A stretch of 64,000 nucleotides of DNA from an uncultured Candidatus Saccharibacteria bacterium. GTDB taxonomy: Bacteria > Patescibacteriota > UBA1384 > DTJR01. The notes under the pieces were generated by a model. That model was not told where the DNA came from. It worked only from the letters and a program-made list of their open reading frames with translations, and did no database searches. Location: the NCBI GenBank assembly GCA_964487045.1, contig CAZAOT010000004.1, positions 6,605 to 70,604 of the forward strand, read 5' to 3'. This document shows, one piece after another, positions 30,884-62,926 of this stretch; positions within the stretch are counted from its first letter, which is position 1; each line of letters opens with the position of its first letter. Made by a program: the position numbers and the translations under genes.

Positions 30884-30927
30884 CTAAGATTATTGACTTA
30901 TGGCCTATTTTGAGGTAAAATTTTCTC

Positions 30928-44694: not shown

Positions 44695-44695
44695 A

Positions 44696-45488: not shown

Positions 45489-45628
45489 TTATATACAAAT
45501 GTTATCATTTTTTTGAATAGATCAACACTAAGTTAGTATTGATCTATTTATAGTTTTCTAGTAGAATAGGGCCAGCTTGGTTGTTCATTGACCCCCATCA
45601 ATACATCTTCAAGGAGTGATGCTTTTTC

Positions 45629-45814
45629 ATGACTGAACCGAAGGAGTCTTGGGCCGCAGACCTTAAACAGCGGCTACAACGTCTCAGATATGAGGCGGAA
45701 ATCAACATGCTTAAGCGGCAGAACGAGCGGCTCATGTGGGTCATCCGAATGCTGCTAGGCAATACTGGCAAGCAAAAGGAGAAAGACCACAATGACCGCA
45801 ATCCGCAAGAGTGA
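45629..45814 (+). CDS. Hypothetical small coiled-coil protein (GC-rich islet)
   Basis: ORF with AAGGAG 12 nt upstream. Local GC is above 50%. Confidence 0.3.
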   Translation: MTEPKESWAADLKQRLQRLRYEAEINMLKRQNERLMWVIRMLLGNTGKQKEKDHNDRNPQE

Positions 45815-45995
45815 AGTAACAAAAGAGCAGTATTTGTTCCTCTTCCCCGACGAGTTAAACGAGGACGAGGGTGGACCGGAAACGATCAATGGACAACGTG
45901 TCCTGTCGCTCGATTCCGATCTTGGGCCTTGGCCAGATCCCGAATGGGATGTGGATATCTACAGGATGGCCTGCAATGAGCTGAAAAGGCGGTAG
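45792..45995 (+). CDS. Hypothetical small acidic protein (GC-rich islet), overlapping the upstream ORF by 23 nt
   Basis: ORF in the same GC-rich islet. It is followed by the terminator hairpin GGGCCCA...TGGGCCC plus a T-run at 46150-46192. Confidence 0.3.
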   Translation: MTAIRKSEVTKEQYLFLFPDELNEDEGGPETINGQRVLSLDSDLGPWPDPEWDVDIYRMACNELKRR

Positions 45996-46149
45996 TCCTC
46001 TAACTACCAACAACGCGGCAAGGGTTATCCTGCCGCAAGCGGTCAATGGCAAACAAGCAAAGCGGCTACGCTATCGTGCATCAAAGGTGTCGTAAACAAG
46101 ACGCAAAGGAAAGGCGGACCAACGTGTCCTCTAACAGCGTAACCTAACA

Positions 46150-46192
46150 GGGCCCAGCATCCACATGGATATTGGGCCCTCAAAGTTTTATT
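46150..46192 (+). terminator. Rho-independent terminator (GGGCCCA-N16-TGGGCCC, then TCAAAGTTTTATT)
   Basis: 7-bp GC stem plus T-rich tail, read directly. Confidence 0.5.
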
Positions 46193-46409
46193 ACATCTTG
46201 AAAAATTCGAGAATTTTATAAACAAGTATCGCTGGCCAAATAATCGCCTTTAACACCCCTAAGACTCCCATCCAGAAGGTCTCAGCATGCTGTAAGAAGT
46301 AAATCACAGCACCGATAAAAGCTAGACCATATATACCTCCCCCGAATGCCCCACCACCTGATCCTTTGGGATTTTCACAGCATTTTTCACCTTCCATATC
46401 TTTTGCCAT
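46191..46409 (-). CDS. Small Gly/Cys-rich membrane protein (hypothetical)
   Basis: AAGGAG ribosome-binding site; the N-terminus contains CCENPKGSGGGAFGGG, followed by two TM helices. Confidence 0.4.
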   Translation of the reverse strand: MAKDMEGEKCCENPKGSGGGAFGGGIYGLAFIGAVIYFLQHAETFWMGVLGVLKAIIWPAILVYKILEFFKM

Positions 46410-46477
46410 ATGACTCCTTAGTTTAGTTTTCTAAAATATAACAAATTATAATATTAAATTCTTGATATAATCATCGC

Positions 46478-46789
46478 ATGGAAAATATTGTAAATATCCT
46501 AAAAATTCTAGCAATTATTATTGCCTCACTAATAATTATTTTTCTTATCCTGCTGGCTCTCCCAAACAGTAAGCTTCGAAGTTCAATTCTTAAAATTTAT
46601 GCAATTGTTTCATTCATAATCGCTATAACATCAGCCGGATATGTAATAAGTCCACTCGATGCTTTGCCTGACTTCATCCCCGTAGCTGGCCAAACAGATG
46701 ATCTCGCTGCAGCAATCTCAAGTCTCGCAAGTGCGATAACTGGCTATATTTCTTGGCAAAAGTCAAAAGAAAGGGCGGAATCTAGATAG
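46478..46789 (+). CDS. DUF1232 (YkvA-like) membrane protein
   Basis: Contains DALPDFIPVAGQTDD, which matches the DUF1232 D-x-IPD-x-IP-x2-G-x2-DD signature. Confidence 0.6.
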   Translation: MENIVNILKILAIIIASLIIIFLILLALPNSKLRSSILKIYAIVSFIIAITSAGYVISPLDALPDFIPVAGQTDDLAAAISSLASAITGYISWQKSKERAESR

Positions 46790-46824
46790 CTAGAGCCGCC
46801 CTGTACATCAATCTCTGACCGAAG

Positions 46825-47205
46825 CTAGAGACAGACAAGCGCCTGCACGCTCGCTGGCTCCTCAACGGAGCGAGGCCAGAAGGTGAAGGCACCGATCTTG
46901 GTGTACGTCACCTTGCCAGTGACCGGCAGATCACGCTGCACTTCGACGCCGACATAGCCGTCCCGGACCCCCTCGACGTCGTAGTGGATGTCCGAGTAGC
47001 TGATGAACCCTGGCATAATGCCGAAGTGCGATAAGCCAGGAACTTCTACCCAGACCGGTACACCTACTTCAAACACCTCATCCGGCCACTCCTCCGGCAG
47101 ACCGTGGATCTCCTGGTCCATCCGAGCCAGCGTAGAAACCCTCGCTTCTAGCACTGGGACTAGCTGGCAGACCTTTCTGCCCTTATACATCCCGAGAAAA
47201 TCCAT
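46825..47205 (-). CDS. Hypothetical protein encoded in a ~57% GC islet
   Basis: Has a GAGGAGG ribosome-binding site. Composition differs sharply from the flanking AT-rich DNA. Confidence 0.45.
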   Translation of the reverse strand: MDFLGMYKGRKVCQLVPVLEARVSTLARMDQEIHGLPEEWPDEVFEVGVPVWVEVPGLSHFGIMPGFISYSDIHYDVEGVRDGYVGVEVQRDLPVTGKVTYTKIGAFTFWPRSVEEPASVQALVCL

Positions 47206-47275
47206 CGCAGACCTCCTCTGTCAGAGAAACTACCATAAGGCTAACACTTTGCGAGATCTTTTTGCAAGTAAACAG

Positions 47276-47734
47276 CTAATAGATTTTAAAATCAGTAATG
47301 CAGTAATCTTTATTAAAATGAAAATCACCCTGGAAATATTTCTTTTCTAAAAACATCGGCAGCCAATACCGATCATTTGGCCACATCTTGTCGTATGGGA
47401 TTTCGTCTATCCTAAACCATCCGATTTTCATTTCTTCAGAATCAGTTGACAGCCCTTCATAATCTAGAATTTCAAAATAGTGCACTTCCATCTCAGGGTC
47501 ATCTACGTAATAAAAAGTCAGCACTCCCCTTTTTTCTGCTTTAGTAACTTTGATGTTCGCTTCCTCTTCGCACTCACGCGCCATCGCTTGTTCGATCGTT
47601 TCTCCATCTTCAACCTTTCCGCCAAACCCAAGCCACTTACCCTGGCCAAAACCATTTTTCTTTCTCCGGCCAAGTAAAATCTTGCCGTCCTTTATAGCTA
47701 ACGCCTCTGTCATTATTTTCTTATCTTTGTTCAT
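47276..47734 (-). CDS. NUDIX hydrolase, MTH1/NUDT1-like (8-oxo-dGTPase-type)
   Basis: Nudix box GGKVEDGETIEQAMARECEEEANI, and a C-terminus MWPNDRYWLPMFLEKKYFQGDFHF that parallels the MTH1 C-terminus. Confidence 0.75.
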   Translation of the reverse strand: MNKDKKIMTEALAIKDGKILLGRRKKNGFGQGKWLGFGGKVEDGETIEQAMARECEEEANIKVTKAEKRGVLTFYYVDDPEMEVHYFEILDYEGLSTDSEEMKIGWFRIDEIPYDKMWPNDRYWLPMFLEKKYFQGDFHFNKDYCITDFKIY

Positions 47735-48314
47735 AGCTAATGATGCTTAGATAAACCAAAAAACTTATCATCCAGCCTCGCTCAGCAATATTTATAAGTT
47801 CGCTCATATGCAAATTAGACCATAAGCTCATCAAGGCAAAAACTAAAGAAATTACAAACAAAACAGCTGTAATAATAAATAGTTTTTTATTTTCTTTTGC
47901 ATAGAATATCATTGCCGAGATCTGAGAAAGTAGAAATACACAAACCGCCATTGTAATCACATTATTATGAGCCCGATCCCTGATTGTTCTGACATTTTCA
48001 ATTGTATCAATCGGCAGAAACCAGTTAAGATAAACAATTATTATAGTTGCAAGCAGCATCAAAAGTCCACTTAAAAAAGCATAATAATTTTTATTCTTAA
48101 TAAATTTAATTGCGACAAACGAGAGAACTATAAATCCTATCGTATAAAAGATATTTATCGCTAAGGCATATTGCGCCCCTTTGGCGTTTAATTCACTGAT
48201 AGTCTGAGCAAAATGATTGTAATTTGGATATAAAACAGAAAACACTGCAATATTCAGTAAAATTACTGCGGATCCGATTAGCCCAAGGTATTTTTCTATT
48301 TTGCTCATAATCAT
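47721..48314 (-). CDS. Polytopic membrane protein (hypothetical)
   Basis: Six predicted TM helices over ~197 aa. Confidence 0.35.
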   Translation of the reverse strand: MIMSKIEKYLGLIGSAVILLNIAVFSVLYPNYNHFAQTISELNAKGAQYALAINIFYTIGFIVLSFVAIKFIKNKNYYAFLSGLLMLLATIIIVYLNWFLPIDTIENVRTIRDRAHNNVITMAVCVFLLSQISAMIFYAKENKKLFIITAVLFVISLVFALMSLWSNLHMSELINIAERGWMISFLVYLSIISYEQR

Positions 48315-48381
48315 ATATCAGTAAATAGGCTTATCACTTAGTAGCATACTTTTGGTAAGGTTGAAGAGGAACATTATTTTT

Positions 48382-51300
48382 TTAGCTACTGGCTTCACTC
48401 CTAAGCCTCATTCTTAGCCCGCCCGCCGAGTGATTTCCACTAATTCGTCCCCCACCTCTAAACTCTACATAATGATCTCCGCCGGGAGAAGGTACGACAT
48501 TAACAGTGGCCTCTACCGGCTCAATAATATATGCTGACTGCTCACTACCAAACCTTTTCGTCAGGATGTCACGACTAAGCCCAGCCGTCGAAAGAGCACT
48601 GTCAGTGATAAATATGGATACTTTAGCTTTTGGCGCTTTAGCCTTAATAGCTGCGAGCTTTTTGGTGACAGCGGCTAAATGCCCATAGAGAATATCGGGC
48701 GAGTGGTTCCCGTAAATCTGGTCAAACACAAAGGACATTTCTTGCTGCTCGCCAATTGTAATCGGCTCAAAGAATACTATCTCGTCGGAAATACTACCTT
48801 CGTTAGCATCCTTGTTAGCATCTTGGCTGTATAAGTAGAATTTGTTCGGATCACCAAAAGTCAGATTTGTATCATTATTGCAACCCGTAGTGTTACACGC
48901 CAAACACTGTCTCATATTCTCGATAATAGGAATCCAGCTATTTGTAATATTGCTGTTTATAGTTAGAGCTGAATCACTTCCTCTTAAATTCCTTAACACC
49001 TCTTGCGTCGCGGTTTGATATTGAGTTGCGCCCTGTTTTTGTGACTCATCGAGCATAGTCTTGAGTTTGTTTTCAATTTCCAATATCGCTTTTTCAAGCA
49101 CAGTCATCTGCTCCCTAATCTCCTGGAGATAAGCAGCTATTGCATCTTTATCCTCTTTTTCGGTGATCTTCTCCTGATTCTTCGAAGCAATACTCTCTAG
49201 ATAGATTAAGTCCTGAGAAATTGCTCGTGCTCCCGAGTCGGTTTTAAACTCCTCGCCTATATCATTAAAGATCCTTACTATGTTAGCGTTTGGTACAAGC
49301 TTCGCACGTAAAGCGTCTACCAGTTTTCGATACTCCGTTCGCTTCTCGACCAAATTCATTGAAGTTGTCGCCAGCTTCACCGTTGATTGTATTGACTTAA
49401 GCTTTTCAATAACCGGCATATCCGAATTCAACTTATCAACTGCCAAGAATTCTTCAACGATATTAAGTTCTTCTTCGGATATCGGTAAATCCTTCCCCAT
49501 TTCAATCTGTATCTTTTTTGCCAAAGCGCTGTTGACCTTACTCGAGCTATAATGCTCGACTAGCGATACATAAGGACGCATTTCTTCTGGATAAGTATCG
49601 GGATCAGCATAAACCTCTAATGCCAATAAAATTCCTTCTAGTTTATCATCCACTGTACGAATATTCCCAAGATGCTGAACTATTACCTCTTCTTGTAATA
49701 TGGGCTGAATTTCAGCGAGCTCCTGGTCGGACAAACCGATTACTTCAGTTGGAATAAATGCTGCCTTATCTCTTTCTTTCAAGTACTCTTTGATATATTT
49801 GTAATGCTGGTTATCCGCTGAAAAATATTCCACCAACTCCTTTTCTAAGTCATCCCCCCTAAACATTTTCCCTTGTCTAAACTGATCCCACTTACCATTT
49901 ACAGTCAGGGCCAAAAAGAGCATTAATAAAGCTGTTTTCTCTTCGTCCTTCGATTTTATATTGCCTAAATAGATCAAGATATCCTTTAACGCTCGAATAT
50001 CCTTGACCTCCATTTTCTCAGGCAACTTATCAAATCCAAGCCTGTCTTTGAAACTTACTTGAAGCCTAGAGAGGGTTTCTTTTTTAAATTCTTCGATTAC
50101 CCCTACCCGATCATTACCCAGCTCAAGCTTATCTGAAAAATCCTTCAGAAGATTCCTAATTGGGAGCAAATCCCGCACACTATATTCCTTGGCTTCTTCC
50201 GGCAAGTGCGTACCAAGAGCGCCGACTTCTGGATTTTTAGGTGGTTGTTTTTGTTCAAGAACAACAAGCTGTGCCTGAAAAAGAGGATAGATATTCTCGA
50301 CGAAATCTTCTAATTCTTTTGGATTAAGCTGTTTAAAAATACGATCGAAATCCTTATACAAAGCAGGCGATGCACCTAATATTTCCTTGGTTACACCATA
50401 AAAATATGATCTGTCTTCATTTCCCCAGCGATTTTTATCAAAGTAAGCTTCTTGGTCCATGAGCATCTGCCCCAGCTGGCGCTTGGTCTCAAAAGCTGTA
50501 TGTCCTTTTAAAAACGCACTATCCATTCCTTCGATCAAACCGGCCATTGCTTGTATATGCCTTAAGTGCCCCGCACCTTCGTTTTTTTGAATGAGTCTAG
50601 CTAGCAAGACCGCATCGACGTTTGATTTAGATTCGGTGAGCTTTTGGATATGATCAAGATAAGCCTTTCGATAATTTTCAAAGACGAAGCTCATTACTTC
50701 AGGATCCTTAAAATAATCTTCGATCCACTGAACTTGCGTTCCCCCCATACTTCTAACAAACCCAGAGAGATAAATAACCCAGTTATCTTTAGTAATAGGT
50801 TGTGTTTGTTCAGGATTATTCTTGGCAAAGTCATATTCAGGAATTCTTGAGCTTTCAAGTAAGGCTGTGTTTTCCTCGCTTAGTCTGCCGGCATAATGCT
50901 CAGCTACTACAAACTTCAAGCCGACATCACTTGCTTGCATATTTTCAAGAATAATTTTACAAAGCCGTTCAATGCTTTCCTGAGGATGCTTTTCGCGGTT
51001 TCTAATGATGTCTGAAACAATGTCTCTAAGCCCCCATATTGATGATTCTTCTGGTATCGCTCCATGCATTTTTGCCAGAGAATCTAGAGCTAACTCGATA
51101 TCAACCTCGTCAACGTTAGAGCCGCTCTTATTATCTAGTAAAATCATTTTCATAACCAAGTCATCACTCTGCTCTAGCAATGATTGCATCGCTGTTGCTT
51201 GATCTAAAAATATCGCGTCAAGCCTCTTTTGGGTCTTAGCGTTGCCCATCCGAATAGCAGATTTGAATATGTTATTGAGTATTAACGCGACAAATCTTTT

Positions 51301-53835
51301 TTGCTGACTAGTCCCGTCTCTGAGCAAATTTAAATGCTGGTCTATGACTTTTTTGCGCTGATTTATTTGTTCCTCATCTTCAAGATTTTTAATTAGCGTC
51401 CATCTGCCAATTTCAGACGAAATTGCGTCAGCAATCGCCTTAAAGCTCTTTGGATCTTTTGCACCTTCGTAGTATTTGGTCAAATACTCGATCGCCTCTG
51501 GTTTACCGTGGACCGAAGCGCGGGCAAGCGACTGGGCAAACTCATTATCCATCGCCTCAGCAATTGGCTTTTTTTCATCAAGCGTCTTTAAAAACTTTCC
51601 ATAAACCTCACTTGGTCCAGCCATACTTAAAAGCATCAATATATTGTTTCTGTCTTGATCTTTTAGGCTCTCAATAAAATTGAGGTTTTCCATGGACCTC
51701 TCGACGATACCTGGTAAAAAATCTAAAGAGCCCGGCTCAATAGAATCTGAAGTCAATCTCATTTTCATATGATTGATATAATCAATATGTTCAGATTCGG
51801 GAGCCGCATCAAATATTCGCGCTGCATATCGGCAATTATCCTTAGTCAGATATCTCTGCAAATAATCTTTAGCAATAACTGGTTCCTGGAGTGCCATTTC
51901 TATTATGTCGCCTTGGCCATCACTAACTTCGTTAGCTGTGTAAGCCAAATGTGCATATAATGAAATTTTTTCTCTCCTGGAAGCTCCACTAAGCAATCGC
52001 TCAGCAACCCTAGCAAAATTTTTTCCTTGTATGCGACGAAACGATTCGTCATATATTCTTCTGGCCCCTAAAGGACTTCTGCTATTTTGAATCAGCCGGC
52101 GCAGGCCTGTATTTTCTTCACGAGCCAAAAAGGCCTTTAACTCTTCCTGATCCAATCCTGCAACGTAACTATTATATGCATTAGGAACATCGCTACGCGA
52201 TGAGTACATCAGTGGCCGCTCACCCGATCCCCCGGGTTGAGTATAGGCAAAAAATGTCAGTATTGGTAATGCCTCAACATTCTTAAATTTAGTTAGCTGC
52301 AACTCTAATTCTGCAGCATCATGGCGCATCTCACTTCCCTTATCAAAAATCATCTCTAACCTTGCGTCGATGATCATTTTTTCGACCTGGTCTAGCCTTT
52401 CCTTGGTAAATCTATCGATCACCTCCGGATCACTCCTAAAAGCATTCCAGAGATCAGGGTCCAACATAAACGGCGCCAGTGCATTCTTTTTTGCGCCTTC
52501 TAATTCGGTTTTTTTATTTCTGATCAGAGACTCTGTGCTATACCACCCAGAGCTATAATCAGTGGTGGTCACAAACCGATCGGCAATTTCAATCTGTCGA
52601 TTGATGAGCTGAATCATCTCAAAACGCACATCTCCCTGGAGAATCTTGGCAACAGGAGTGACATCGATTTCCTGAGGAATTCGTTCGATCTGAGAGCTTA
52701 AATAGCTTACGTCAAAATATTGGCAAACCTTTTCTATCTTGATGCCTAAATCACGAACTAGTTCCTCTTCTTTCTCTGGCTGAGCTGCTTTGGCAATAAG
52801 AAATTCAGAAATATCTTTAGTCAACCCCTCAACCATTAAGAAACCAGAGGGAATATGGTAGGAGTCTATTATTTGCTTCAGCTTTTCACTTATGAGGCTT
52901 AATTCTATTCGTTTTTTAGCTTCCTGGCTAATCGCTAAATCTTGGTTTTCGACTGTTTGGTCGAGATCGGGATAAGTAACATTTTCGATTCTTTCTCCAA
53001 TGTTGTGATTGATTATGGCAATTAGTTTTTCTTTAGAATATTCCAAGTCATAATAGCCTCCTACAGGATAAATCACTGCCTGCTTTAGATCCAGTAGTTC
53101 AAAATAGTCCTTTTGGATCGCCGCCCGCTGTACATCATTGGCTAAAAGACGGCGGCGAGCCTCCTTAATATCTTCATCTTCGCGGCCAAAAGCTTTTCTA
53201 ATCTTTCGGATTGGATGCATGTGATAATGTCGGTAAATCAGGTCACGATCGGCCCAGGTTTGATCGGTTAATTTATCAAGCCTGCTTCGCATATCTTCGA
53301 CTGATTCGGCGCCATGCTCAGCCAATAGTTTTTGAGTCGAGGTTGCTACAGCACTCTCGACATATTTTATAAACGAATTTATCTTTTGAGCATCTTCTAG
53401 CCTGATTCTCTCAAGATTTTCAATTTCGCTGATAAGCTCAACCGCTTCCTCCACCCGGACCCCTGCTTGAGCATCATCTTCCTTGAAAGCCTCCATTTTT
53501 TCATTGAGCGCTTTGTAGAGCTTTTCGGTCATATCCTTAATATCGCCAACATGCCCCTTCATCTGAACAATAAATGCCTTAATATCCGGCACCTCAACAA
53601 CTCTACCTGGTGGCTCAGACGCTGTCGGTTCCGTTACATCAGTCGCTCTACTCTTTATCTGTTCAGCTCTAGACTTTTTGACTGAGCGAGCCGCGGCGGT
53701 AGCTTCTAAAATTGCTTCCAAACTATTCAGTTCAGACTCAGTTTGGACAAAAATATCACTCTTGGCTCCAGACTCAGCAACTGGCTCACCAACTTCTTGC
53801 TCCTCACTACCAATAATTTCCGGCTGATCCGGCAT
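48382..53835 (-). CDS. Giant 1817-aa soluble hypothetical protein (ORFan)
   Basis: One uninterrupted ORF with an AAGGAG ribosome-binding site. No signal peptide, TM helix or recognisable catalytic motif. It appears predominantly alpha-helical and acidic, with a Cys cluster (CLACNTTGC) near the C-terminus. Confidence 0.6.
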   Translation of the reverse strand: MPDQPEIIGSEEQEVGEPVAESGAKSDIFVQTESELNSLEAILEATAAARSVKKSRAEQIKSRATDVTEPTASEPPGRVVEVPDIKAFIVQMKGHVGDIKDMTEKLYKALNEKMEAFKEDDAQAGVRVEEAVELISEIENLERIRLEDAQKINSFIKYVESAVATSTQKLLAEHGAESVEDMRSRLDKLTDQTWADRDLIYRHYHMHPIRKIRKAFGREDEDIKEARRRLLANDVQRAAIQKDYFELLDLKQAVIYPVGGYYDLEYSKEKLIAIINHNIGERIENVTYPDLDQTVENQDLAISQEAKKRIELSLISEKLKQIIDSYHIPSGFLMVEGLTKDISEFLIAKAAQPEKEEELVRDLGIKIEKVCQYFDVSYLSSQIERIPQEIDVTPVAKILQGDVRFEMIQLINRQIEIADRFVTTTDYSSGWYSTESLIRNKKTELEGAKKNALAPFMLDPDLWNAFRSDPEVIDRFTKERLDQVEKMIIDARLEMIFDKGSEMRHDAAELELQLTKFKNVEALPILTFFAYTQPGGSGERPLMYSSRSDVPNAYNSYVAGLDQEELKAFLAREENTGLRRLIQNSRSPLGARRIYDESFRRIQGKNFARVAERLLSGASRREKISLYAHLAYTANEVSDGQGDIIEMALQEPVIAKDYLQRYLTKDNCRYAARIFDAAPESEHIDYINHMKMRLTSDSIEPGSLDFLPGIVERSMENLNFIESLKDQDRNNILMLLSMAGPSEVYGKFLKTLDEKKPIAEAMDNEFAQSLARASVHGKPEAIEYLTKYYEGAKDPKSFKAIADAISSEIGRWTLIKNLEDEEQINQRKKVIDQHLNLLRDGTSQQKRFVALILNNIFKSAIRMGNAKTQKRLDAIFLDQATAMQSLLEQSDDLVMKMILLDNKSGSNVDEVDIELALDSLAKMHGAIPEESSIWGLRDIVSDIIRNREKHPQESIERLCKIILENMQASDVGLKFVVAEHYAGRLSEENTALLESSRIPEYDFAKNNPEQTQPITKDNWVIYLSGFVRSMGGTQVQWIEDYFKDPEVMSFVFENYRKAYLDHIQKLTESKSNVDAVLLARLIQKNEGAGHLRHIQAMAGLIEGMDSAFLKGHTAFETKRQLGQMLMDQEAYFDKNRWGNEDRSYFYGVTKEILGASPALYKDFDRIFKQLNPKELEDFVENIYPLFQAQLVVLEQKQPPKNPEVGALGTHLPEEAKEYSVRDLLPIRNLLKDFSDKLELGNDRVGVIEEFKKETLSRLQVSFKDRLGFDKLPEKMEVKDIRALKDILIYLGNIKSKDEEKTALLMLFLALTVNGKWDQFRQGKMFRGDDLEKELVEYFSADNQHYKYIKEYLKERDKAAFIPTEVIGLSDQELAEIQPILQEEVIVQHLGNIRTVDDKLEGILLALEVYADPDTYPEEMRPYVSLVEHYSSSKVNSALAKKIQIEMGKDLPISEEELNIVEEFLAVDKLNSDMPVIEKLKSIQSTVKLATTSMNLVEKRTEYRKLVDALRAKLVPNANIVRIFNDIGEEFKTDSGARAISQDLIYLESIASKNQEKITEKEDKDAIAAYLQEIREQMTVLEKAILEIENKLKTMLDESQKQGATQYQTATQEVLRNLRGSDSALTINSNITNSWIPIIENMRQCLACNTTGCNNDTNLTFGDPNKFYLYSQDANKDANEGSISDEIVFFEPITIGEQQEMSFVFDQIYGNHSPDILYGHLAAVTKKLAAIKAKAPKAKVSIFITDSALSTAGLSRDILTKRFGSEQSAYIIEPVEATVNVVPSPGGDHYVEFRGGGRISGNHSAGGLRMRLRSEASS

Positions 53836-54159
53836 AATTTTCTCCTTGACTTAATTTTAGCTTGCCATAAGCAATAAATAAAGTAGCTAGCTTGTTAACT
53901 ATTTGGGATTATTTTGGCATAATTTGCCAGGCAGTTAAGAGACTTGTCTCTTGGCTGACTACTACCAAAGAAAGCTGGTGCTGAAGATGTCTGACGTACT
54001 CGAGCTGTTGAGGCAATTCGGGACTGGAGAAGTCAAGCTGGATGCGCTCGATGAGGCACACAGACTCACCCACAAGGGGACCGTGAACTACAAACGGTCC
54101 CCTTTTCAAATACTCAAAAAAATAGAGTAATATTAAGTTAATAATTACTAAGGGGGAAT

Positions 54160-55083: not shown

Positions 55084-55260
55084 TTATTCTGGGTTAGAGG
55101 TCTGTAGATCGCTAAAATAGCCCTCAGGCGAAATTGAGTCAAAATCAAATGTATTAGCTACTTTGTATTTGCTATAAAATTTGAAACTGAAAATGCAAAC
55201 CGAAGCGACTAGAACTACAAGCAATACGATTAAAAATGTTTTGTTTTTTACTTTTTTCAT
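55084..55260 (-). CDS. Possible 58-aa single-TM small protein (under 60 aa, so absent from the ORF track)
   Basis: Translated by hand: MKKVKNKTFLIVLLVVLVASVCIFSFKFYSKYKVANTFDFDSISPEGYFSDLQTSNPE. Confidence 0.2.
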   Translation of the reverse strand: MKKVKNKTFLIVLLVVLVASVCIFSFKFYSKYKVANTFDFDSISPEGYFSDLQTSNPE

Positions 55261-55376
55261 ATTATTAGATTATCGGATTTTTAAGTAGAAATAAAGGGTC
55301 GTGGCTGCGCGCTTCGAATCCCTGCGGAACCAACTCCAAACAAAAACAGCTCCTATCGGAGCAATTTTTGTTTGTC

Positions 55377-55450
55377 TGGTTCCCGGGCAGGGATTCGAAC
55401 CCCAATTCTTTGGACCAAAACCAAATGTCCTGCCGTTAGACGACCCGGGA
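55377..55450 (-). tRNA. tRNA-Gln (anticodon TTG), with encoded CCA
   Basis: Hand-folded: acceptor TCCCGGG/CCCGGGA, anticodon stem TTTGG/CCAAA with loop TTTTGGT, T-loop GGGGTTCGAATCCC. Confidence 0.8.
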
Positions 55451-55570
55451 ATACAAAAACAATATACCTTTTAAATGAAGTTTTCTCAAGTGGCTTAGTG
55501 GTAAAATTAGATTTGAAAATACGTTTCGATCAGGTATATTAAGAGAAATATCAAATAATATTTTATATAT

Positions 55571-57106: not shown

Positions 57107-57161
57107 TAAACTTAAAAATTGCCGACTTGTCACGGGCAAGGTCAAGCGGTAAAGTCTTTTT

Positions 57162-58004
57162 ATGGCCGAATACAAACCGCCGCGCTCAGCAGCTTGGAAT
57201 TTCCACCCGGAAAACTCAAAACCATATCGAATGAGTCGATCTGGCTTAGAGTTATTTGTGAAGTGCCCAAACTGCTTCTATATCGATAAAAGACTTGGTG
57301 TGGCTCCCCCACCAATCCCTTCATTTACCTTGAACTCAGCTGTCGATCATTTGCTCAAAAAAGAATTCGATATTCATCGCGCCAAGGATACCCGCCATCC
57401 ACTGCTTGAAAAGTATGGCGTCGATGCCAAGCCCGTCAATCACGAACGCCTGGAAATTTGGCGAGATACTTTTAAAGGTATCAGCACGCTACATCAAAAG
57501 ACTAATATCGAATTTTACGGTGGAATTGACGATCTTTGGATCAATTCAAAAGGTGAATTTATAGTTGTTGATTATAAAGCGACTTCCAAAGATGGCAAAA
57601 TTGATATCGATGGCTTCTGGCAGCAAGCCTATAAAAGACAACTTGAAATTTATCAATGGATTTTAAGGCAAAGCGGATTTAAGGTTTCGAATAAGGGATA
57701 TTTTGTTTATTGTAACGGCAAGAAAGACCGCTCAGCCTTCGACGGAAAATTAGAGTTTGACATCGAACTAATCGAATATATAGGTGATGACTCGTGGGTT
57801 GAGCCTACTCTTATTAAAGCTAAGCAGTGTTTAATGCAAGATGCTCCGCCACCACCGAGCGAAAACTGCGAGCTTTGTAGATTTAAAAAAGCAATTGATG
57901 ATACTAAAAAGATTGGAAAATCTGGTTTGGACGTGAAAGAAAAAAGTAAATCTGAAGAAAAAATCGACAAACCAACAAAATACGTCAAAACTCAGCTTTT
58001 ATAA
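57162..58004 (+). CDS. Cas4-like / RecB-family PD-(D/E)xK nuclease with a 4-Cys Fe-S cluster signature (stand-alone)
   Basis: N-terminus RMSRSGLELFVKCPNCFY matches the Cas4 S-x-S...CP motif. The nuclease core is GIDDL ... VVDYK ... QLEIYQWIL (D, D/E-x-K, Q-x3-Y). C-terminal cysteines are C-x12-C-x2-C. Confidence 0.65.
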   Translation: MAEYKPPRSAAWNFHPENSKPYRMSRSGLELFVKCPNCFYIDKRLGVAPPPIPSFTLNSAVDHLLKKEFDIHRAKDTRHPLLEKYGVDAKPVNHERLEIWRDTFKGISTLHQKTNIEFYGGIDDLWINSKGEFIVVDYKATSKDGKIDIDGFWQQAYKRQLEIYQWILRQSGFKVSNKGYFVYCNGKKDRSAFDGKLEFDIELIEYIGDDSWVEPTLIKAKQCLMQDAPPPPSENCELCRFKKAIDDTKKIGKSGLDVKEKSKSEEKIDKPTKYVKTQLL

Positions 58005-58008
58005 AGCA

Positions 58009-58040
58009 ATGGCCCCTCAAGCGTCAGCCTGAGAGGCCAT
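58009..58040. terminator. Imperfect GC-rich hairpin (ATGGCCCCTCA-N11-TGAGAGGCCAT) between convergent genes
   Basis: Read directly. A U-rich tail is present on the minus-strand side. Confidence 0.4.
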
Positions 58041-58065
58041 GAAACGACTAGCTGTCGATCATCTG

Positions 58066-58533
58066 CTAGATACGACCGCGCATCAAGTGGCGACCGAGGT
58101 TCTCGGGCAAGCCGAATGACCTACTCGAGAACTTCCCTGCGATGAGGTCAGCCTGAACCTCTTCGTCGAGAACCTCGGCACGAACGATCAGCTTGACTGG
58201 CTTCTGACCTTCGTCGTAGATCGGCTCTATCGCCGTCCAGCCATCGGGCAGGAATTCCTGCGTGGCGTTGGCGCTCTTGAAGCGCTCGAAAAGCGCATCG
58301 GTGACGGCAGGAGGCAAGCAATACTCATTGAGCTTGCACACCCCTTCGACGCAGGCGGCGATCGCCGCGTCCATAGAGGCATCACCGAGCGCATCAACTC
58401 TTCGCGCGATCACATGCGCAGCGGCACGTTCATACTTGAGCGAGACTTCCTCGTGACGCGCGACCAGATCCTCGGCACTTACCTCCGCCAGAAGAAGTGC
58501 ATCTTCCAGGATGCGACCGATGGTCTTGTTCAT
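58066..58533 (-). CDS. Hypothetical protein (GC-rich islet)
   Basis: GGAGGG ribosome-binding site. About 55% GC. Confidence 0.4.
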   Translation of the reverse strand: MNKTIGRILEDALLLAEVSAEDLVARHEEVSLKYERAAAHVIARRVDALGDASMDAAIAACVEGVCKLNEYCLPPAVTDALFERFKSANATQEFLPDGWTAIEPIYDEGQKPVKLIVRAEVLDEEVQADLIAGKFSSRSFGLPENLGRHLMRGRI

Positions 58534-58626
58534 GTTCTTACCCTCCGTATTCTCCCTAGCTTAAGCCGGGGTATGTCCAACAAGTAATTGCCTACGTTTC
58601 TTTCTTGGTATACAGCTTGCGAGCGT

Positions 58627-59043
58627 CTAGTCGGAATTCTCAGGCGGGAGCGTGCGCTCGATCGAGGTTGGGCAGACATCGTTACCACTCCTGACCTTGA
58701 CCTCCCAGGCTGGGTAGATGACTTCAACCTCGCAGATATTCTGCACCACCTCGATCAAATCAGCACCGAAATTGATAATCGCCATTTCGGTCACAGCCTG
58801 AGGCAGTGAGCCTTTCTCCTGAGTGACCAAGGCAAGCGTCAGAAGCTTACGCACCTTGGTTACCTGAACCACACACGCAACGTGCGACATCGCCCAGGCC
58901 AGGTGCGTAATCTTAGCCATGAGCATGCTTTTCGGCTCGCCAGCCTCACAGCATGCCTCGAGGTCATCGATGATCTGGCCTAGCGGCTTTTGCTGCCCAG
59001 CAAGATCACCTTGAAGCTTCGAGAGCTCCTCTCGCGGATTCAT
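58627..59043 (-). CDS. Hypothetical protein (GC-rich islet)
   Basis: The start is set at the ATG at 59043 (MNPREEL...), which has a GAGGAGG ribosome-binding site. Its promoter reads TTGATA-17-TAATAT. It diverges from the polymerase operon. Confidence 0.4.
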   Translation of the reverse strand: MNPREELSKLQGDLAGQQKPLGQIIDDLEACCEAGEPKSMLMAKITHLAWAMSHVACVVQVTKVRKLLTLALVTQEKGSLPQAVTEMAIINFGADLIEVVQNICEVEVIYPAWEVKVRSGNDVCPTSIERTLPPENSD

Positions 59044-59143
59044 GAACGTCCTCCTCAGCCTATTTGTAGGGTGCAAGCTTATGGAGCGAATATTACCTTT
59101 TTTAACGCATATTATCAAGGCTTAAATTCAAAAAATATCACTA

Positions 59144-59173
59144 TTGACATGTTCGGGTTTTGTTCGCTAATAT
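59144..59173 (+). promoter_or_regulatory. Sigma70-type promoter (TTGACA, 18-nt spacer, TAATAT). The spacer holds a GTTC-N7-GTTC direct repeat, and the transcript appears leaderless
   Basis: ctaTTGACAtGTTCGggttttGTTCGcTAATATtaaattATG. The -10 element ends 6 nt before the ATG at 59180, and there is no Shine-Dalgarno sequence. Confidence 0.5.
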
Positions 59174-59179
59174 TAAATT

Positions 59180-59428
59180 ATGGATCAAACAGCACTTAAT
59201 GAACCAATCAGTGTCTTAGCCAGCTTCAAGGAAGGCCGGCCCACTCCTCTTATTTTTAAACGTAATGGTCGCAAAACCAGGCTAGAAACAATCGACCTCA
59301 AATACGATTATCAAATTGGCGAGACTAGAGTTTATGCTTTCTCTGCCTCCGCCGGCGGAAACACTTATAAAATTACATTCAACAATAAATCTTTGCAGTG
59401 GATACTGGAAGAAATTGCCTGTGGATAA
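59180..59428 (+). CDS. Small 82-aa protein translationally coupled to the Y-family polymerase (possible polymerase accessory factor)
   Basis: Its stop (TAA at 59426) overlaps the GTG start of the polymerase (tGTGgaTAA). It sits behind its own strong promoter. Confidence 0.45.
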   Translation: MDQTALNEPISVLASFKEGRPTPLIFKRNGRKTRLETIDLKYDYQIGETRVYAFSASAGGNTYKITFNNKSLQWILEEIACG

Positions 59429-60671
59429 TAAAAGAATTATTCTCCATATCGATATGAACTCCTATTTTGCTTCTGTCGAGCAGCAAGCTAGGCCAGTGCT
59501 TAGGGGTAAGCCAATTGGCATTGTCGGCTCGCTAGACAAAAAAAGAACGATCATCGTCGCTGCTTCTTATGAAGCCAAAGCGCTTGGCATCAAAACCGGC
59601 ACTCAACTCTGGGAGGCCAAAAGGCTCTGTCCTCAAATCGAATTAATTTCCGCTGACTGCCAGCGCTATGAAGCAATTACTCGCCAATTTTTAAATATTT
59701 TTATTTCTAAAACTCCCCTCGTTGAGATCTTCTCTATCGACGAAGCCTTTCTTGACGTGACCACTCAAACAAAAAATTTTGAGCAAGCCGAGAAGCTGGC
59801 GCTGCAAATCAAACAAGAAATTAAAGAAACGATTGGGGCAAGTATCCGTTGTTCAATCGGCATCGGCAGCAATAAATTTATTGCCAAACTAGCATCCGAA
59901 GCTAAAAAGCCAGATGGTCTAACGATTGTGCCGCCAGGACAAGAACAAGATTTTGTTGATCAATTTGAGCTTAAAGATGCTTGTGGCATTGGCTTTCGGA
60001 CTGACGCTCATCTTAAAAAGCTTGGGATTAATTCTTTTAGAGATTTACGCGCAAGACCACTAACTGACCTTACCCTTATCTTTCATTCGTACGGACTAAA
60101 ACTCTACCGCATGGCGCGCGGAGAGGATTTTGACAAAATTAAGCCCTACTATGAGCGCGAATTACCTAAAAGTTTTTCCAGAAGCAAAACCCTAAGGCGA
60201 GACGTATTTGATAAAAATGAAATTAAAAATTTTATCATGGCTTTTGCCGCTAATATCGCCGAAGAGCTCAAAAACAAATCACTCTTAGCCACAAACGTTG
60301 GACTCTACCTGCGTTTTAACGATTTTAGAGGATATTCGGCCACGATAAATCTTAAAAAATCTACGAATTTCAGTTTAGACTTCTTTAAGGCCTGCAGTAA
60401 AATGCTTGATAGCATTGAACTTAACAAGCCAGTTAGAAAAGTAGGTATCTGGATCGGCAAACTGCAAAATGATCATGGACAGGAACTTATTTTTAAAGAA
60501 TTATCAAAGCCCGTCAAGCTCGAAAAAATTAGCGAAAAGATCAACCAGAAGCATGGCGACAACCTGGTCTTTAGGGCCAGGCTTGCCGGATTAAATTTCT
60601 TTGGTAAAACACCAAATTACGGATTTACCCCGTTAGAGATTTTTGAAGATATAAAAAAATCTAAGGAGTAG
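59421..60671 (+). CDS. Y-family translesion DNA polymerase (DinB/UmuC-like)
   Basis: (V/M)DNKRIILHIDMNSYFASVEQQ matches the DinB/UmuC N-terminus. Also has SIDEAFLD and GIGSNKFIAKLASEAKKPDG. The start is set at the GTG at 59421; the ORF-finder's ATG at 59316 adds non-homologous residues. Confidence 0.85.
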   Translation: MDNKRIILHIDMNSYFASVEQQARPVLRGKPIGIVGSLDKKRTIIVAASYEAKALGIKTGTQLWEAKRLCPQIELISADCQRYEAITRQFLNIFISKTPLVEIFSIDEAFLDVTTQTKNFEQAEKLALQIKQEIKETIGASIRCSIGIGSNKFIAKLASEAKKPDGLTIVPPGQEQDFVDQFELKDACGIGFRTDAHLKKLGINSFRDLRARPLTDLTLIFHSYGLKLYRMARGEDFDKIKPYYERELPKSFSRSKTLRRDVFDKNEIKNFIMAFAANIAEELKNKSLLATNVGLYLRFNDFRGYSATINLKKSTNFSLDFFKACSKMLDSIELNKPVRKVGIWIGKLQNDHGQELIFKELSKPVKLEKISEKINQKHGDNLVFRARLAGLNFFGKTPNYGFTPLEIFEDIKKSKE

Positions 60672-60704
60672 TATTTAATTGATATTACCGGATCTCTAAC
60701 GGGG
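60628..60704. repeat. Palindromic repeat element, copy C. CCCCGTTAGAGAT and ATCTCTAACGGGG flank a 51-nt interior that spans the polymerase stop codon
   Basis: Read directly. The left inverted repeat encodes TPLEIF within the last 14 codons of the polymerase. Confidence 0.65.
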
Positions 60705-60721
60705 TGAAAGAAAGATTATAA

Positions 60722-60760
60722 AGTTTAAAAAGCAAGGGGCGACCGAAGTCGCCCCAAAGA
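60722..60760 (-). terminator. Rho-independent terminator (GGGGCGAC-cgaa-GTCGCCCC, with a U-run on the minus strand) for the TIM-barrel gene
   Basis: 8-bp GC stem. The minus-strand reading gives the hairpin followed by TTGCTTTTTAAAC. Confidence 0.55.
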
Positions 60761-60774
60761 AGGTGAAAAAGATG

Positions 60775-61620
60775 CTAGGCATCGCGAAGCGCGCTACTGA
60801 CAAACTCAAGCGCTTCAGTCGCATCTTTGATAACTGCATCGAAGCGCTCTTGGGTTGAGAGGGGAAGAAACTTCAGCATGCCTATTTCCGGCGAGTGTTC
60901 CAAAACAACGGGCACCTCCGGATACCAGAAACCGATACAGGCAAGCTGCTCCTTGAGAGGCATGGTACCTCGCCCAGGAACCAGATGGCCTTGCCAGCGT
61001 TTTCCCGGCACGCTATCGCATATGTGAAACTCGGCGATAGGAGCCAGGTTCTCGACATGGTCACAGAACTCCTCCAGAGAGTATCCGCCGGAAGGATGAT
61101 ACTGCGCTAGGTGTTCAACGTCGACAACTATCCCTACGTCATCAACGACAGAGCAAACGCAGCGTAGCGCCCGAGAAAAGCTCTCAAGCAGGTCGCCTTT
61201 GATAAGCGGGTGCGAGAAGAAGTTAGAGTTCTCAACCAGCACACTAAGGTCCTTAAGCTTGCTGATCTCCTCCGACAGCATCAACTCAAGGATGTTCTCG
61301 TGATGCAGAATGATCGGTATCTGGTACTCACGGGCAATTTCGATTCCCGGAGTTCCAAAGAGTGGACCGATCATCAGCTGCCAGAGAATAGCAAACTTGA
61401 CCTCACTTCTAGGTCCGAAACGAAGCCTATTGTACAGACTCCGCCTTGTAACCAGTGGCGATCCATGAAAAGCGACTACTCCGCTATCAATGTCGCTCTC
61501 ATCAAAGGCTCGAAATGGCGTAAGCTCGACGCCATACAGGCCCATCAGTTCTCGTGCAACGCGATGAGCTACATCCTTGTCTCCCCAGCATGCTACATCA
61601 GAAATAGCGATGGCATTCAC
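60775..61620 (-). CDS. Metal-dependent TIM-barrel protein, xylose-isomerase-like / AP-endonuclease-2 superfamily (tentative). About 52% GC
   Basis: Regularly spaced His/Asp/Glu clusters (ILHHENILE, VVDVEH, FHICDS, VLEHSPE) fit this fold. The specific subfamily is unresolved. Confidence 0.3.
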   Translation of the reverse strand: MNAIAISDVACWGDKDVAHRVARELMGLYGVELTPFRAFDESDIDSGVVAFHGSPLVTRRSLYNRLRFGPRSEVKFAILWQLMIGPLFGTPGIEIAREYQIPIILHHENILELMLSEEISKLKDLSVLVENSNFFSHPLIKGDLLESFSRALRCVCSVVDDVGIVVDVEHLAQYHPSGGYSLEEFCDHVENLAPIAEFHICDSVPGKRWQGHLVPGRGTMPLKEQLACIGFWYPEVPVVLEHSPEIGMLKFLPLSTQERFDAVIKDATEALEFVSSALRDA

Positions 61621-61712
61621 ACCATCACCTCCCTCTCAAGGTTCATTGTGATTTACAATCTAAGTAATTTATCAGAGATGCAATAATACGTCAATTGTTT
61701 GTTAACGATAAT

Positions 61713-61823
61713 TTGACAATGTTTTAAAATAGCACTAAAATCTCTCTAATGAGGTGGCACCAAAAACAATCAAAATCACAACAAGCCACCACCATGAGTT
61801 AAGGGCCCGCAAGGGTCTTTTTT
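61713..61823 (+). promoter_or_regulatory. Promoter (TTGACA, 17-nt spacer, TAAAAT), then a leaderless 16-codon leader ORF (MRWHQKQSKSQQATTMS), then an intrinsic terminator (GGCCC-gcaa-GGGTC-TTTTTT). This is a candidate attenuator upstream of the alarmone-hydrolase gene
   Basis: All elements were read directly. The leader ORF runs 61749-61802 and its stop codon abuts the terminator stem. An internal hairpin pairs GGTGGC with GCCACC. Confidence 0.4.
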
Positions 61824-61858
61824 CTTACATCCCGGGTTAGTAGCCCCTTGAAAGGTAG

Positions 61859-62554
61859 GTGAGAGACGTGACGATCATAGCCGAAACGCATCGCGATGCT
61901 CGGGCTGACGCACTCGAACACTTCGACTTCTGGAATCTCAAGCAAGCCGGAAAGTACTCCTTGGCCAGACACTTGGCAGAAAGAGCTCACGAACTCCAGT
62001 ATCGCGCAACCGGAGATCTTTACGTCACTCATGTCTATGGGGTGGCTAAGATCCTGGTTGATGCTGGACTCGAAAGAGATCTGATCACAAGAGTATGCGC
62101 ACTCTTGCATGACACTATCGAGGATTGCGCTCCTGATGATAAGCCTCGATTGAGACGCGTTATCAGAGGGCGCATTGGCCTTGTTCCCTACATGATCGTA
62201 GAGACCCTGACCAAGAAGGACGGCATCGACTATCCGACCCAGATGGTCATCTCGATCAGACGCTACCACCAAATCGGACTTTGGCGCGTGCCACTGATCA
62301 AGCTTGCCGACATCCTGTTCAACCTTTCCACCATCGAGGGCTTCAACGATCTCACCAAGGAGCTTCACCAGTTCGACAAAGCACGGCGTATCCTAGACGA
62401 AGTGATCGTACCCAGTCGCAAGTACATTCCTCGGGTATATCTCGCAGCCTACGATCACCTACTTCAAAGTGTCGAGACTTTGCTTGAACTTAAGCGCCAG
62501 GAGTCGATTGACCGCAATCGCCTTCAAGAGCTACAGCTCCACCTCGCCTACTAG
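61859..62554 (+). CDS. HD-domain small alarmone hydrolase ((p)ppGpp hydrolase, SpoT/Mesh1-like, hydrolase-only)
   Basis: AHELQYRATGDLYVTHVYGVAKILVDAGLERDLITRVCALLHDTIED matches the RelA/SpoT HD hydrolase motifs (H...HD...D). Starts with GTG. About 50% GC. Confidence 0.7.
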   Translation: MRDVTIIAETHRDARADALEHFDFWNLKQAGKYSLARHLAERAHELQYRATGDLYVTHVYGVAKILVDAGLERDLITRVCALLHDTIEDCAPDDKPRLRRVIRGRIGLVPYMIVETLTKKDGIDYPTQMVISIRRYHQIGLWRVPLIKLADILFNLSTIEGFNDLTKELHQFDKARRILDEVIVPSRKYIPRVYLAAYDHLLQSVETLLELKRQESIDRNRLQELQLHLAY

Positions 62555-62561
62555 CCTCTTC

Positions 62562-62595
62562 TTGGCCCCAGCACCCCTGGGGCCAATACTTTTTT
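62562..62595 (+). terminator. Rho-independent terminator (TTGGCCCCAG-caccc-CTGGGGCCAA, then TACTTTTTTG)
   Basis: 10-bp GC-rich stem plus a T6 run, immediately after the hydrolase stop codon. Confidence 0.7.
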
Positions 62596-62728
62596 GCAGT
62601 AGTCTATTGAATAAAAACATTTATTTGTGTATCTTAGTTTTCCCCTAAGGTTTTCTAATCCTTGACAAATATTCCCAATTAGTGACACCAAAGGGTATAA
62701 TGAAAAAAATGAGAGGAGGTGAGCAAAG

Positions 62729-62926
62729 ATGGCAGATGAAGATATGGACGTAGAAGAAAAAGACGAGGAAGTTGAAGAAGAAAAAGAAGGTGAAGAAGAA
62801 GAAGTAGAAGAAGAGGAAGTTGAAGAGGAAGAAGAAGTCGCTGGTGACGAAGACGAGTCCGACGACAACGAAGAAGACGAAGAAGAGGATGAAGAATCCG
62901 ACGACGAGGAAGAAGAAAAAGAATAA
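62729..62926 (+). CDS. 65-aa extremely acidic poly-Glu/Asp protein (candidate DNA-mimic or chaperone-like disordered protein)
   Basis: Strong ribosome-binding site (GAGGAGGTG, 8 nt upstream), a TATAAT box upstream, and a dedicated terminator downstream. 49 of 65 residues (about 75%) are Asp or Glu. Confidence 0.5.
   Translation: MADEDMDVEEKDEEVEEEKEGEEEEVEEEEVEEEEEVAGDEDESDDNEEDEEEDEESDDEEEEKE

Follow-up and report, generated by a model that had tools for sequence, protein, structure and literature searches.

GC-rich gene islets around dinB in a Candidatus Saccharibacteria chromosome: probable horizontally acquired cassettes at two hot spots

Here we report an analysis of GC-rich gene islets in a 64,000-nt stretch of DNA from an uncultured Candidatus Saccharibacteria bacterium (GenBank assembly GCA_964487045.1, contig CAZAOT010000004.1, positions 6,605 to 70,604), referred to below as the window. 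A preliminary description of this DNA had listed five short islets of at least 50% GC between positions 45560 and 62560 and read them as recent acquisitions from a high-GC donor, possibly the actinobacterial host of an episymbiotic cell. Four of the five islets are real, and the third is marginal. In the reading that we favor and consider fairly probable, the islets are small horizontally acquired accessory cassettes in a conserved backbone, and islets 4 and 5 occupy two hot spots that flank dinB, the gene for DNA polymerase IV. A small streamlined genome of the Candidate Phyla Radiation (CPR) type would then keep defined hot spots for swapping foreign genes, in the form of two intergenic slots around an error-prone polymerase operon. 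The slots would have been filled from GC-richer organisms, and among their cargo are an alarmone hydrolase and lineage-restricted modules of two genes; if the donors were identified, the islets could link uncultivated episymbionts to their hosts.

The window was scanned for GC content in intervals of 200 bp, and runs of at least 50% GC were listed. Its mean GC content is 39.2% (SD 0.054 across intervals), and the host chromosome (~38% GC) probably belongs to the Patescibacteria/CPR. In the range of the reported islets, GC-rich runs lie at 45626-46200, 46651-47275, 57976-59125, 60726-61650, and 61751-62600. Within the first 44 kb, only the RNase P RNA (30926-31250) forms such a run; outside the islets there remain the poly-Gly tail encoded by a DUF2207 gene (44501-44825) as well as two lone 200-bp intervals (48401-48600 and 59476-59675). 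The DUF2207 spike, on the plus strand just 5' of the reported range, corresponds to the poly-Ser/poly-Gly C-terminal tail of a 571-aa protein (...GGGGFSGGGGGGGGGGGW) and is no islet.

Relative to a reference set of 61 core genes with products of 100 aa or more, in which the GC content of third codon positions (GC3) averages 0.315 +/- 0.045 and never exceeds 0.425, the open reading frames (ORFs) of the islets stand out with GC3 values of 0.56-0.72 (z = 5.3 to 8.9). The GC content of first positions (GC1) is also raised, to 0.55-0.67, and hence the amino acid composition is shifted too, like that of proteins that evolved in a GC-rich genome; the GC excess of the islets is itself not an amino acid effect. 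The order of the three positions is GC3 > GC1 > GC2, except in the 281-aa gene of islet 5 (GC1 > GC3 > GC2), so that the second position is lowest in every islet ORF, as expected for real coding sequence. The GC-normalized dinucleotide distance (delta*) between the pooled islets and the host is 125, compared with 40 +/- 13 (maximum 84) for 500 random host sets of the same size. Islet 4 and the two genes of islet 5 (5a and 5b) are closer to one another in dinucleotide signature than to the host, and islet 1 is an exception, with a signature nearer to that of the host than to those of the other islets. The shifts in composition are as abrupt as had been described, with sharp edges placed at gene ends, and islet 2 does follow directly on the stop codon of a DUF1232 gene, beginning 6 bp past it. 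Non-coding DNA within islets 1, 2, and 4 is GC-raised as well (47-56%), which fits inserted foreign DNA and not codon-level selection. Islets 1, 2, 4, and 5 are thus well supported; in islet 5 this holds for both genes and not for the 247-bp spacer between them, which is host-like at 39% GC.

The comparison with relatives places islets 4 and 5 in two variable slots of a conserved gene order. Five related loci (L178, L179, L180, L182, and L183) were found with DinB as handle; in all of them an 82-aa ORF and dinB occur together, and the DinB proteins are 57-81% identical. The shared backbone consists of a PD-(D/E)XK nuclease, the 82-aa ORF and dinB, a hyper-acidic ORF of 40-70 aa, a membrane protein and, further along, RNase HII. 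In the window, the left edge of the first slot (slot A) is the Cas4-like PD-(D/E)XK nuclease gene (57162..58004, plus strand; Pfam PDDEXK_1, E=1e-10; 40% GC), which is conserved in L179, L180, L182, and L176. Slots A and B are separated by the 82-aa ORF-dinB operon (59144..60671, plus strand; GC3 0.39-0.40), which comprises a promoter (59144-59173), the conserved 82-aa ORF (59180-59428), and dinB, starting at about 59334 or later and ending at 60671. The right edge of slot B is the gene for a hyper-acidic 65-aa protein with 73% Asp+Glu (62729..62926, plus strand). A similar acidic ORF of 40-70 aa is found 3' of an HD-domain gene in L180, in L092, and on a 135-kb ENA contig of a related species (ERZ1426829), and directly after dinB in L183.

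The contents of both slots differ among the lineages, and each slot is empty in one of them. Slot A holds two genes, ORFan-A and ORFan-B, in the window; genes of 141, 144, and 148 aa, all of 53-61% GC, in the sister lineage L184; a dienelactone-hydrolase (DLH)-family gene and a 280-aa gene of 56-57% GC in L178; and a DJ-1 gene of host-like GC followed by 226-aa, 119-aa, and ACP genes of 59-65% GC in L182. In L179, slot A is reduced to 80 bp with the operon promoter conserved, between flanks that match those of the window (nuclease 64%, 82-aa ORF 75%, and DinB 69% identity). Slot B of the window contains a 281-aa gene and a gene for an HD-domain protein. The ERZ1426829 lineage carries a 281-aa gene, matched by position and length only, and an HD gene 48-51% identical to that of the window; in L178, at least a fragment resembling the C-terminus of the 281-aa gene follows dinB; L179 has ArgA-like and ArgE-like genes of 52% GC; and L180 has a different HD_4 gene (61% GC), 24% identical to that of the window. 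In L183, the slot is empty, with 83 bp between dinB and the acidic ORF. The genes flanking the slots of the relatives have 38-44% GC. Replicons of Nostoc, Rhodococcus, Azoarcus, haloarchaea, and rhizobia carry genes with 50-59% identity to the DLH gene of L178, so that this cargo clearly stems from outside CPR.

Islet 4, the cargo of slot A, is a two-gene cassette of ~1.1 kb on the minus strand (58005..59140; GC 0.52-0.61, GC3 0.65-0.69) with GGAGG ribosome-binding sites. A promoter-like site (59118-59090) precedes ORFan-A (138 aa, 58627-59043), whose ATG at 59043 is preceded by GGAGGA; ORFan-B (155 aa, 58066-58533) follows, and a strong terminator hairpin (58040-58009) closes the cassette. 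A search of 1.84 billion cluster representatives returned one true homologue of ORFan-B, its syntenic copy, which is seen on L176, L177, and L184 with ~60.6% GC and GC3 of 0.71 beside the tail of a 38% GC PD-(D/E)XK gene. In this sister lineage (L176, L184), ORFan-B is 72% and ORFan-A 25% identical to the window proteins, and an extra 141-aa gene is present. The two copies of ORFan-B differ by 32, 24, and 62 substitutions at codon positions 1, 2, and 3, and this excess at third positions identifies the gene as genuinely coding. The junction with the backbone has the same layout in the window and in L176: the ORFan-B stop codon is followed by a hairpin (stem ends ATGGCCTC...GAGGCCAT), the motif T(G/T)CTTTA, and the stop codon of the nuclease gene. 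Since the junction is homologous in both lineages, they inherited a single insertion. A single-sequence AlphaFold model of ORFan-B had a predicted local distance difference test score (pLDDT) of 41.5, too low for use.

Three further observations concern this cassette. The co-oriented pair evolves at unequal rates (L184 copies at 472-906 and 1052-1498), an asymmetry that is reminiscent of toxin/immunity or arms-race pairs and has no family match behind it; the layout of one fast (25%) and one conserved (72%) gene is suggestive of a toxin-antitoxin or defense module, and neither this pair nor that of islet 1 matched such a module in PADLOC, Pfam, or NCBIfam. An 18-nt direct repeat, 17/18 identical, connects 57338-57355, inside the nuclease gene, with 58050-58067, at the islet edge over the ORFan-B stop codon. 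The repeat is probably due to chance because it is not conserved at the homologous L176 junction.

Islet 5, the cargo of slot B, consists of two divergent genes. The 281-aa gene (islet 5a; 60775-61620 within 60736..61620, minus strand; 52% GC, GC3 0.56) has a GTG start, a GGGAGG Shine-Dalgarno sequence, and a terminator at 60755-60736. Its product matches Pfam AP_endonuc_2 over residues 126-227 only, with E=0.0014 and 18.8 bits against a cut-off of 31.1 bits, so that the protein is possibly a xylose-isomerase-like TIM barrel; the label of TIM-barrel protein in the preliminary description is firmer than this sub-threshold match allows. The protein had no sequence match in the PDB and none in IMG/VR, and its single-sequence AlphaFold model (pLDDT 39.8) was too low in confidence for use. 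The host-like spacer (61621..61867) contains promoter-like sites on the minus strand (61694-61666) and on the plus strand (61713-61741; 11/12 consensus match).

The second gene (islet 5b; 61868..62586, plus strand; 52% GC, GC3 0.61; terminator 62562-62586) encodes a 228-aa protein, the alarmone hydrolase of the preliminary description, and here the label is well founded. Pfam HD_4 is matched with 38.5 bits against a cut-off of 27.2 bits as the sole domain, without the RelA_SpoT synthetase, TIGR00691 is matched in its N-terminal hydrolase region only, and the PDB matches include the hydrolase domain of Thermus Rel and Mesh1. The residues H55, H81-D82, E85-D86, D148, and N152 are invariant in a six-member alignment and align to the hydrolase motifs of Thermus Rel; their role we take to be catalytic from what is known of Rel(Seq) and Mesh1. 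By these features the protein is predicted to be a stand-alone (p)ppGpp hydrolase domain of the RelA/SpoT type, that is, a small alarmone hydrolase. It resembles Mesh1 and the small alarmone hydrolases of bacteria and phages in having the H, HD, ED, D, and N motifs without a synthetase domain, as well as in matching the phage family phrog_990. Unlike them, it belongs to a small divergent group with five close relatives (47-53% identity, against ~35% or less for all other proteins), two of which were placed on contigs of related lineages, and it carries a conserved C-terminal extension of ~70 aa. Past those five proteins, its matches are generic RelA/SpoT hydrolase domains with ~35% identity over ~60% of its length, and a metagenome scan with the HD-family alignment found generic RelA/SpoT HD motifs and no close relative. 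One homologue, 53% identical, lies in another sample on a contig (L091, 1-4589) that is a gene-by-gene GC mosaic, in which an arginyl-tRNA synthetase (ArgRS) gene of 57% GC (GC3 0.69) adjoins an Asp/Glu racemase gene of 33% GC, with a 183-aa ORF of 55% GC and spacers of 38-40%; this ArgRS is closest to Bacteroidota-type enzymes (40%), with 26% identity to actinobacterial ones.

These comparisons do not support a recent acquisition of islets 4 and 5. The islet 4 junction is shared with a sister lineage in which 41% of the conserved-amino-acid codons of ORFan-B differ, where saturation for its codon usage is about 63%; the codon difference of the adjacent core genes is 0.5-0.6 against a saturation of 0.57-0.61. 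Slot B contains a gene of the 281-aa length together with an HD gene in a second lineage, and the TIM-like C-terminal fragment in a third. Islets 4 and 5 are older than the divergence from lineages with synonymously saturated core genes.

From these data we propose the following scenario. One hot spot would lie between the nuclease stop codon and the promoter of the 82-aa ORF-dinB operon (slot A), the other between the dinB stop codon and the gene for the hyper-acidic small protein (slot B), and the lineages of the clade would carry differing cargo, mostly GC-rich, or none, at both. The cargo would stem from GC-richer gene pools, nominally of 55-65% GC or higher if partly ameliorated, and probably from several donors at different times, and it would be expressed from host-type signals, namely AT-rich sigma-70-like promoters, GGAGG ribosome-binding sites, and intrinsic terminators. 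Insertion was probably by illegitimate or flank-mediated recombination, because neither an integrase nor att repeats are present. Islets 4 and 5, having entered before the sister lineages split, would be old, incompletely ameliorated imports. GC3 is lowest (0.56-0.61) in islet 5, which has host-like flanks and whose 281-aa gene has left traces in three lineages; this fits longer amelioration. The data show the composition, the correct assembly, the variability of the slots with their empty sites, the shared ancestral junction, and the coding status, whereas we infer the direction of transfer, along with the donors, the mode of insertion, and expression.

Several observations weigh against horizontal acquisition at hot spots. 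The islet genes contain no integrase or transposase domain according to Pfam, PHROGs, NCBIfam, and PADLOC (below, the four family collections). There is no tRNA attachment site, the only nearby tRNA gene (Gln, 55377-55450) adjoining no islet, and no flanking direct repeat beyond the chance-level 18-nt match. A donor was found for no gene of the window, where the 281-, 126-, 138-, 67-, 61-, and 59-aa proteins were not properly searched in a large protein collection. Islets 1-3 are covered by no DNA from any relative. In most cases accessory DNA has a higher AT content than the host chromosome, the opposite of what the islets show. Finally, the GC-richness has lasted for long. GC3 of ORFan-B is 0.69 and 0.71 in the two lineages despite their codon difference, and GC3 is still 0.58-0.61 in HD homologues that share 52% amino acid identity and approach saturation at synonymous sites; in islet 5 the spacer is fully host-like in composition, whereas GC3 of the coding sequence that flanks it has not. 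If ORFan-B had decayed neutrally toward the host GC3 of ~0.35 since a single insertion, its ancestral GC3 would have been about 0.94, which points to a donor of ~68-75% GC, a possible but extreme value. This estimate uses the Muto-Osawa and Lawrence-Ochman (1997) regressions, which reproduce the GC1, GC2, and GC3 values of the host core genes.

Genomic islands and many gene transfers, mostly between Patescibacteria, have been documented in this group (PMC12455944). The slots around dinB resemble the chromosomal hot spots of horizontal gene transfer between core genes that are described across bacteria, including those islands, in their conserved flanks, variable cargo, and partly empty sites, and in a cargo of atypical composition with many genes of no known function. 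They differ from the usual hot spots in that the cargo is 13-20 points GC-richer than the host instead of AT-richer, in that the cassettes comprise only one to three genes without integrases, tRNA sites, or repeats, and in that the GC-richness persists across species-level divergence. Apart from one unusual feature, we regard the locus as a clear but unremarkable case of horizontal gene transfer, and the phenomenon is of a known kind.

This persistence bears on an alternative that we consider unlikely, namely that the GC-rich genes are long-resident and lineage-specific and that their composition is maintained by GC-biased gene conversion, by selection on codons or mRNA, or by allelic replacement from a GC-rich pool. 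It is consistent with the GC3 of about 0.7 in both lineages that share the one ancestral islet 4 insertion, with the high GC3 of the nearly saturated HD homologues, with the contrast between coding GC3 and spacer in islet 5, and with an HD_4 gene of 61% GC even in slot B of L180, where DinB is only 62% identical to that of the window. On the other hand, GC1 and hence the amino acid composition is shifted too, the non-coding DNA of islets 1, 2, and 4 is GC-rich, and the ribosomal-protein genes show the opposite codon bias, which makes translational selection for GC-ending codons unlikely. Gene flux is evident from the empty sites and from cargo of plainly foreign origin (DLH, ArgA/ArgE), and the known effects of GC-biased gene conversion in bacteria are far smaller than a change from 0.3 to 0.7. 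The third-position classes of ORFan-B, in which S denotes G or C and W denotes A or T (SS 0.515, SW+WS 0.356, WW 0.129; n=101), agree somewhat better with amelioration than with GC-richness at a steady state, the difference (chi-square 0.4 vs 3.8) being not significant. In terms of the amelioration model of Lawrence and Ochman, the islets behave like foreign genes in that their GC3 is far from that of the host and that the islet traced in most lineages has the lowest GC3 and host-like flanks; what differs is that their persistence, measured against synonymous divergence, lies at the edge of what neutral amelioration permits. It is unlikely, though worth stating, that the accessory genes of the dinB slots stay GC-rich (GC3 0.55-0.8) far beyond neutral amelioration, amid genes and spacers of host composition, through maintained composition or through a standing DNA conduit from one very GC-rich host. 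A maintaining force would mean, for example, that gene conversion is strongly GC-biased or that alleles are continually replaced from the pool of a GC-rich partner, and a standing conduit would make the islets usable as a genomic marker of host identity. That the GC-richness persists across speciation is in itself a challenge, if a small one, to the model of neutral amelioration, and one open to testing.

We return to horizontal acquisition at the two hot spots and to the source of the cargo. That an episymbiotic CPR cell recently received this DNA from a high-GC actinobacterial host, the explanation offered in the preliminary description, seems to us improbable. The GC-richness of the cargo agrees with such a host, the extreme donor composition calculated above for a single islet 4 insertion would fit Actinomycetota among others, and every weak match of the HD protein outside the clade with a visible taxon is from Actinomycetota. 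These named matches are fragments of actinobacterial metagenome-assembled genomes (MAGs), however, with the ~35% identity over ~60% of length given above, and Thermus Rel scores about equally; a shared GC-rich amino acid composition is likely the simpler reason for them. Neither insertion is recent: islet 4 shares its junction with a sister lineage at large synonymous divergence, and genes similar to those of slot B occupy that slot in another lineage and probably in one more. ORFan-B has its syntenic homologue and no actinobacterial one among the 1.84 billion representatives, the L091 ArgRS with its GC-rich gene is closer to Bacteroidota than to actinobacterial sequences, and the cargo of the relatives matches cyanobacterial, proteobacterial, and archaeal genes besides those of Rhodococcus, which points to free-living donors of several kinds (for example Nostoc, Rhodococcus, Azoarcus, and haloarchaea).

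Searches with the islet proteins gave little else. The ORFans have no match in the four family collections, which match the HD protein only, apart from the sub-threshold Pfam match of the 281-aa protein; the 281-aa, 155-aa, and 126-aa proteins have none in IMG/VR, and tblastn of the concatenated islet proteins against plasmids and phages returned none. Best hits confined to low-GC CPR genomes had been named beforehand as an observation that would speak against transfer. Best hits were indeed found only in related low-GC CPR genomes, which by that measure would refute the idea, but they are themselves GC-rich islets, so that this comparison does not decide. Of the earlier proposal, acquisition by horizontal transfer is supported by the foreign-looking composition, the empty sites, and the differing slot cargo, and its recency and the actinobacterial donor are not supported.

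It is very improbable that the GC-rich stretches are structured non-coding RNAs whose long ORFs merely reflect the scarcity of stop codons in GC-rich DNA. Such a reading could draw on the several overlapping ORFs on both strands of islet 4 and on the 195 bp of GC-rich, hairpin-bearing non-coding DNA in islet 1, but a scan of 44-64 kb gave no Rfam match even at E<=1 other than the tRNA. Moreover, the islets have a three-base GC periodicity of the coding type, with GC2 lowest, and Shine-Dalgarno sequences in the annotated frames; the changes in ORFan-B are concentrated at third positions at 72% amino acid identity to the sister copy; and the catalytic motif set of the HD protein is intact. The RNA reading is thereby refuted for islets 2, 4, and 5, and it remains for 45996-46190 in islet 1 and for islet 3.

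Chimeric joins with reads of a co-occurring high-GC organism, an assembly or binning artifact for which the abrupt shifts in composition are a generic warning sign and for which no other support was found, are effectively refuted: looking up exact proteins retrieved, from seven SRA runs belonging to two accession series, ten Logan contigs that are 100.000% identical to the window and jointly cover 38641-64000, so that every islet junction is spanned and several independent runs agree over each; the independent ERZ1426829 contig keeps the gene order of the window through islets 4 and 5; and the islet genes bear host-type promoters, Shine-Dalgarno sequences, and terminators.

The other islets lie upstream. 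Islet 1 (45598..46190, plus strand; GC 0.50-0.53) consists of two small ORFs and GC-rich non-coding DNA. The first ORF encodes a basic protein of 61 aa with an isoelectric point (pI) of 9.6 (45629-45814) and the second an acidic one of 67 aa with a pI of 4.3 (45792-45995), the latter called on four independent contigs; both have GC1/2/3 of about 0.6/0.35/0.62, and neither protein matches a family in the four collections. The 195 bp of non-coding DNA 3' of them (51% GC) contain a hairpin (46014-46037) that had been taken for a terminator; it is a GC hairpin without a T-run on the plus strand. The two ORFs overlap by 23 nt in different frames (45629-45995), the basic product is coiled-coil-like, and the layout of the pair resembles that of an addiction or regulatory pair.

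Islet 2 (46790..47275, minus strand) is a single ORFan of 126 aa (46825-47205) between the stop codons of NUDIX and DUF1232 genes. It has 58% GC and the highest deviation in GC3 (0.72, z=8.9), and it is identical on four independent contigs. A GGAGG Shine-Dalgarno sequence is present and a promoter of its own is absent, so that the gene is probably co-transcribed with DUF998-NUDIX. The protein has no match in the four family collections, IMG/VR, plasmids, or phages. Islet 3 (53951..54130, plus strand; reported at 53915-54115) is not a robust islet. Its 59-aa ORF, placed in the spacer between the divergent 1817-aa and 307-aa genes, is doubtful: it has just 48-49% GC, starts with TTG, lacks a Shine-Dalgarno sequence, and is uncalled on independent contigs, including L005; a GC3 of 0.63 is all that speaks for it. 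The 1817-aa ORF between islets 2 and 3 (48382-53835, minus strand) has no Pfam domain and a near-host GC content of 41.5%, and since it is missing from the matching region of the syntenic ERZ1426829 contig, it is accessory too.

Some minor observations concern the relatives and the backbone. The closest match of the prolyl-tRNA synthetase (ProRS) among GTDB species representatives came from a Moraniibacteriota MAG with only 64% identity, which was set aside, having no synteny and no islets to compare. In L183 (NCBI GCA_041890195.1), the region 1829-4435 contains a 272-aa ORFan of 54% GC beside bAvd-family and serine-recombinase-family genes on a contig of otherwise 37% GC, and it may be a mobile element or one associated with a diversity-generating retroelement. 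The acidic ORF (46-73% Asp+Glu, with a strong Shine-Dalgarno sequence) is conserved in position in every relative examined (L180 3785-3994, L092 1380-1535, L183 6519-6641), and in composition it is like a DNA mimic or a chaperone. The 82-aa ORF, which has no Pfam match and is unannotated in some lineages, stands behind a conserved promoter with 45-82% identity across all six lineages, and its product may be an unrecognized partner of DinB.

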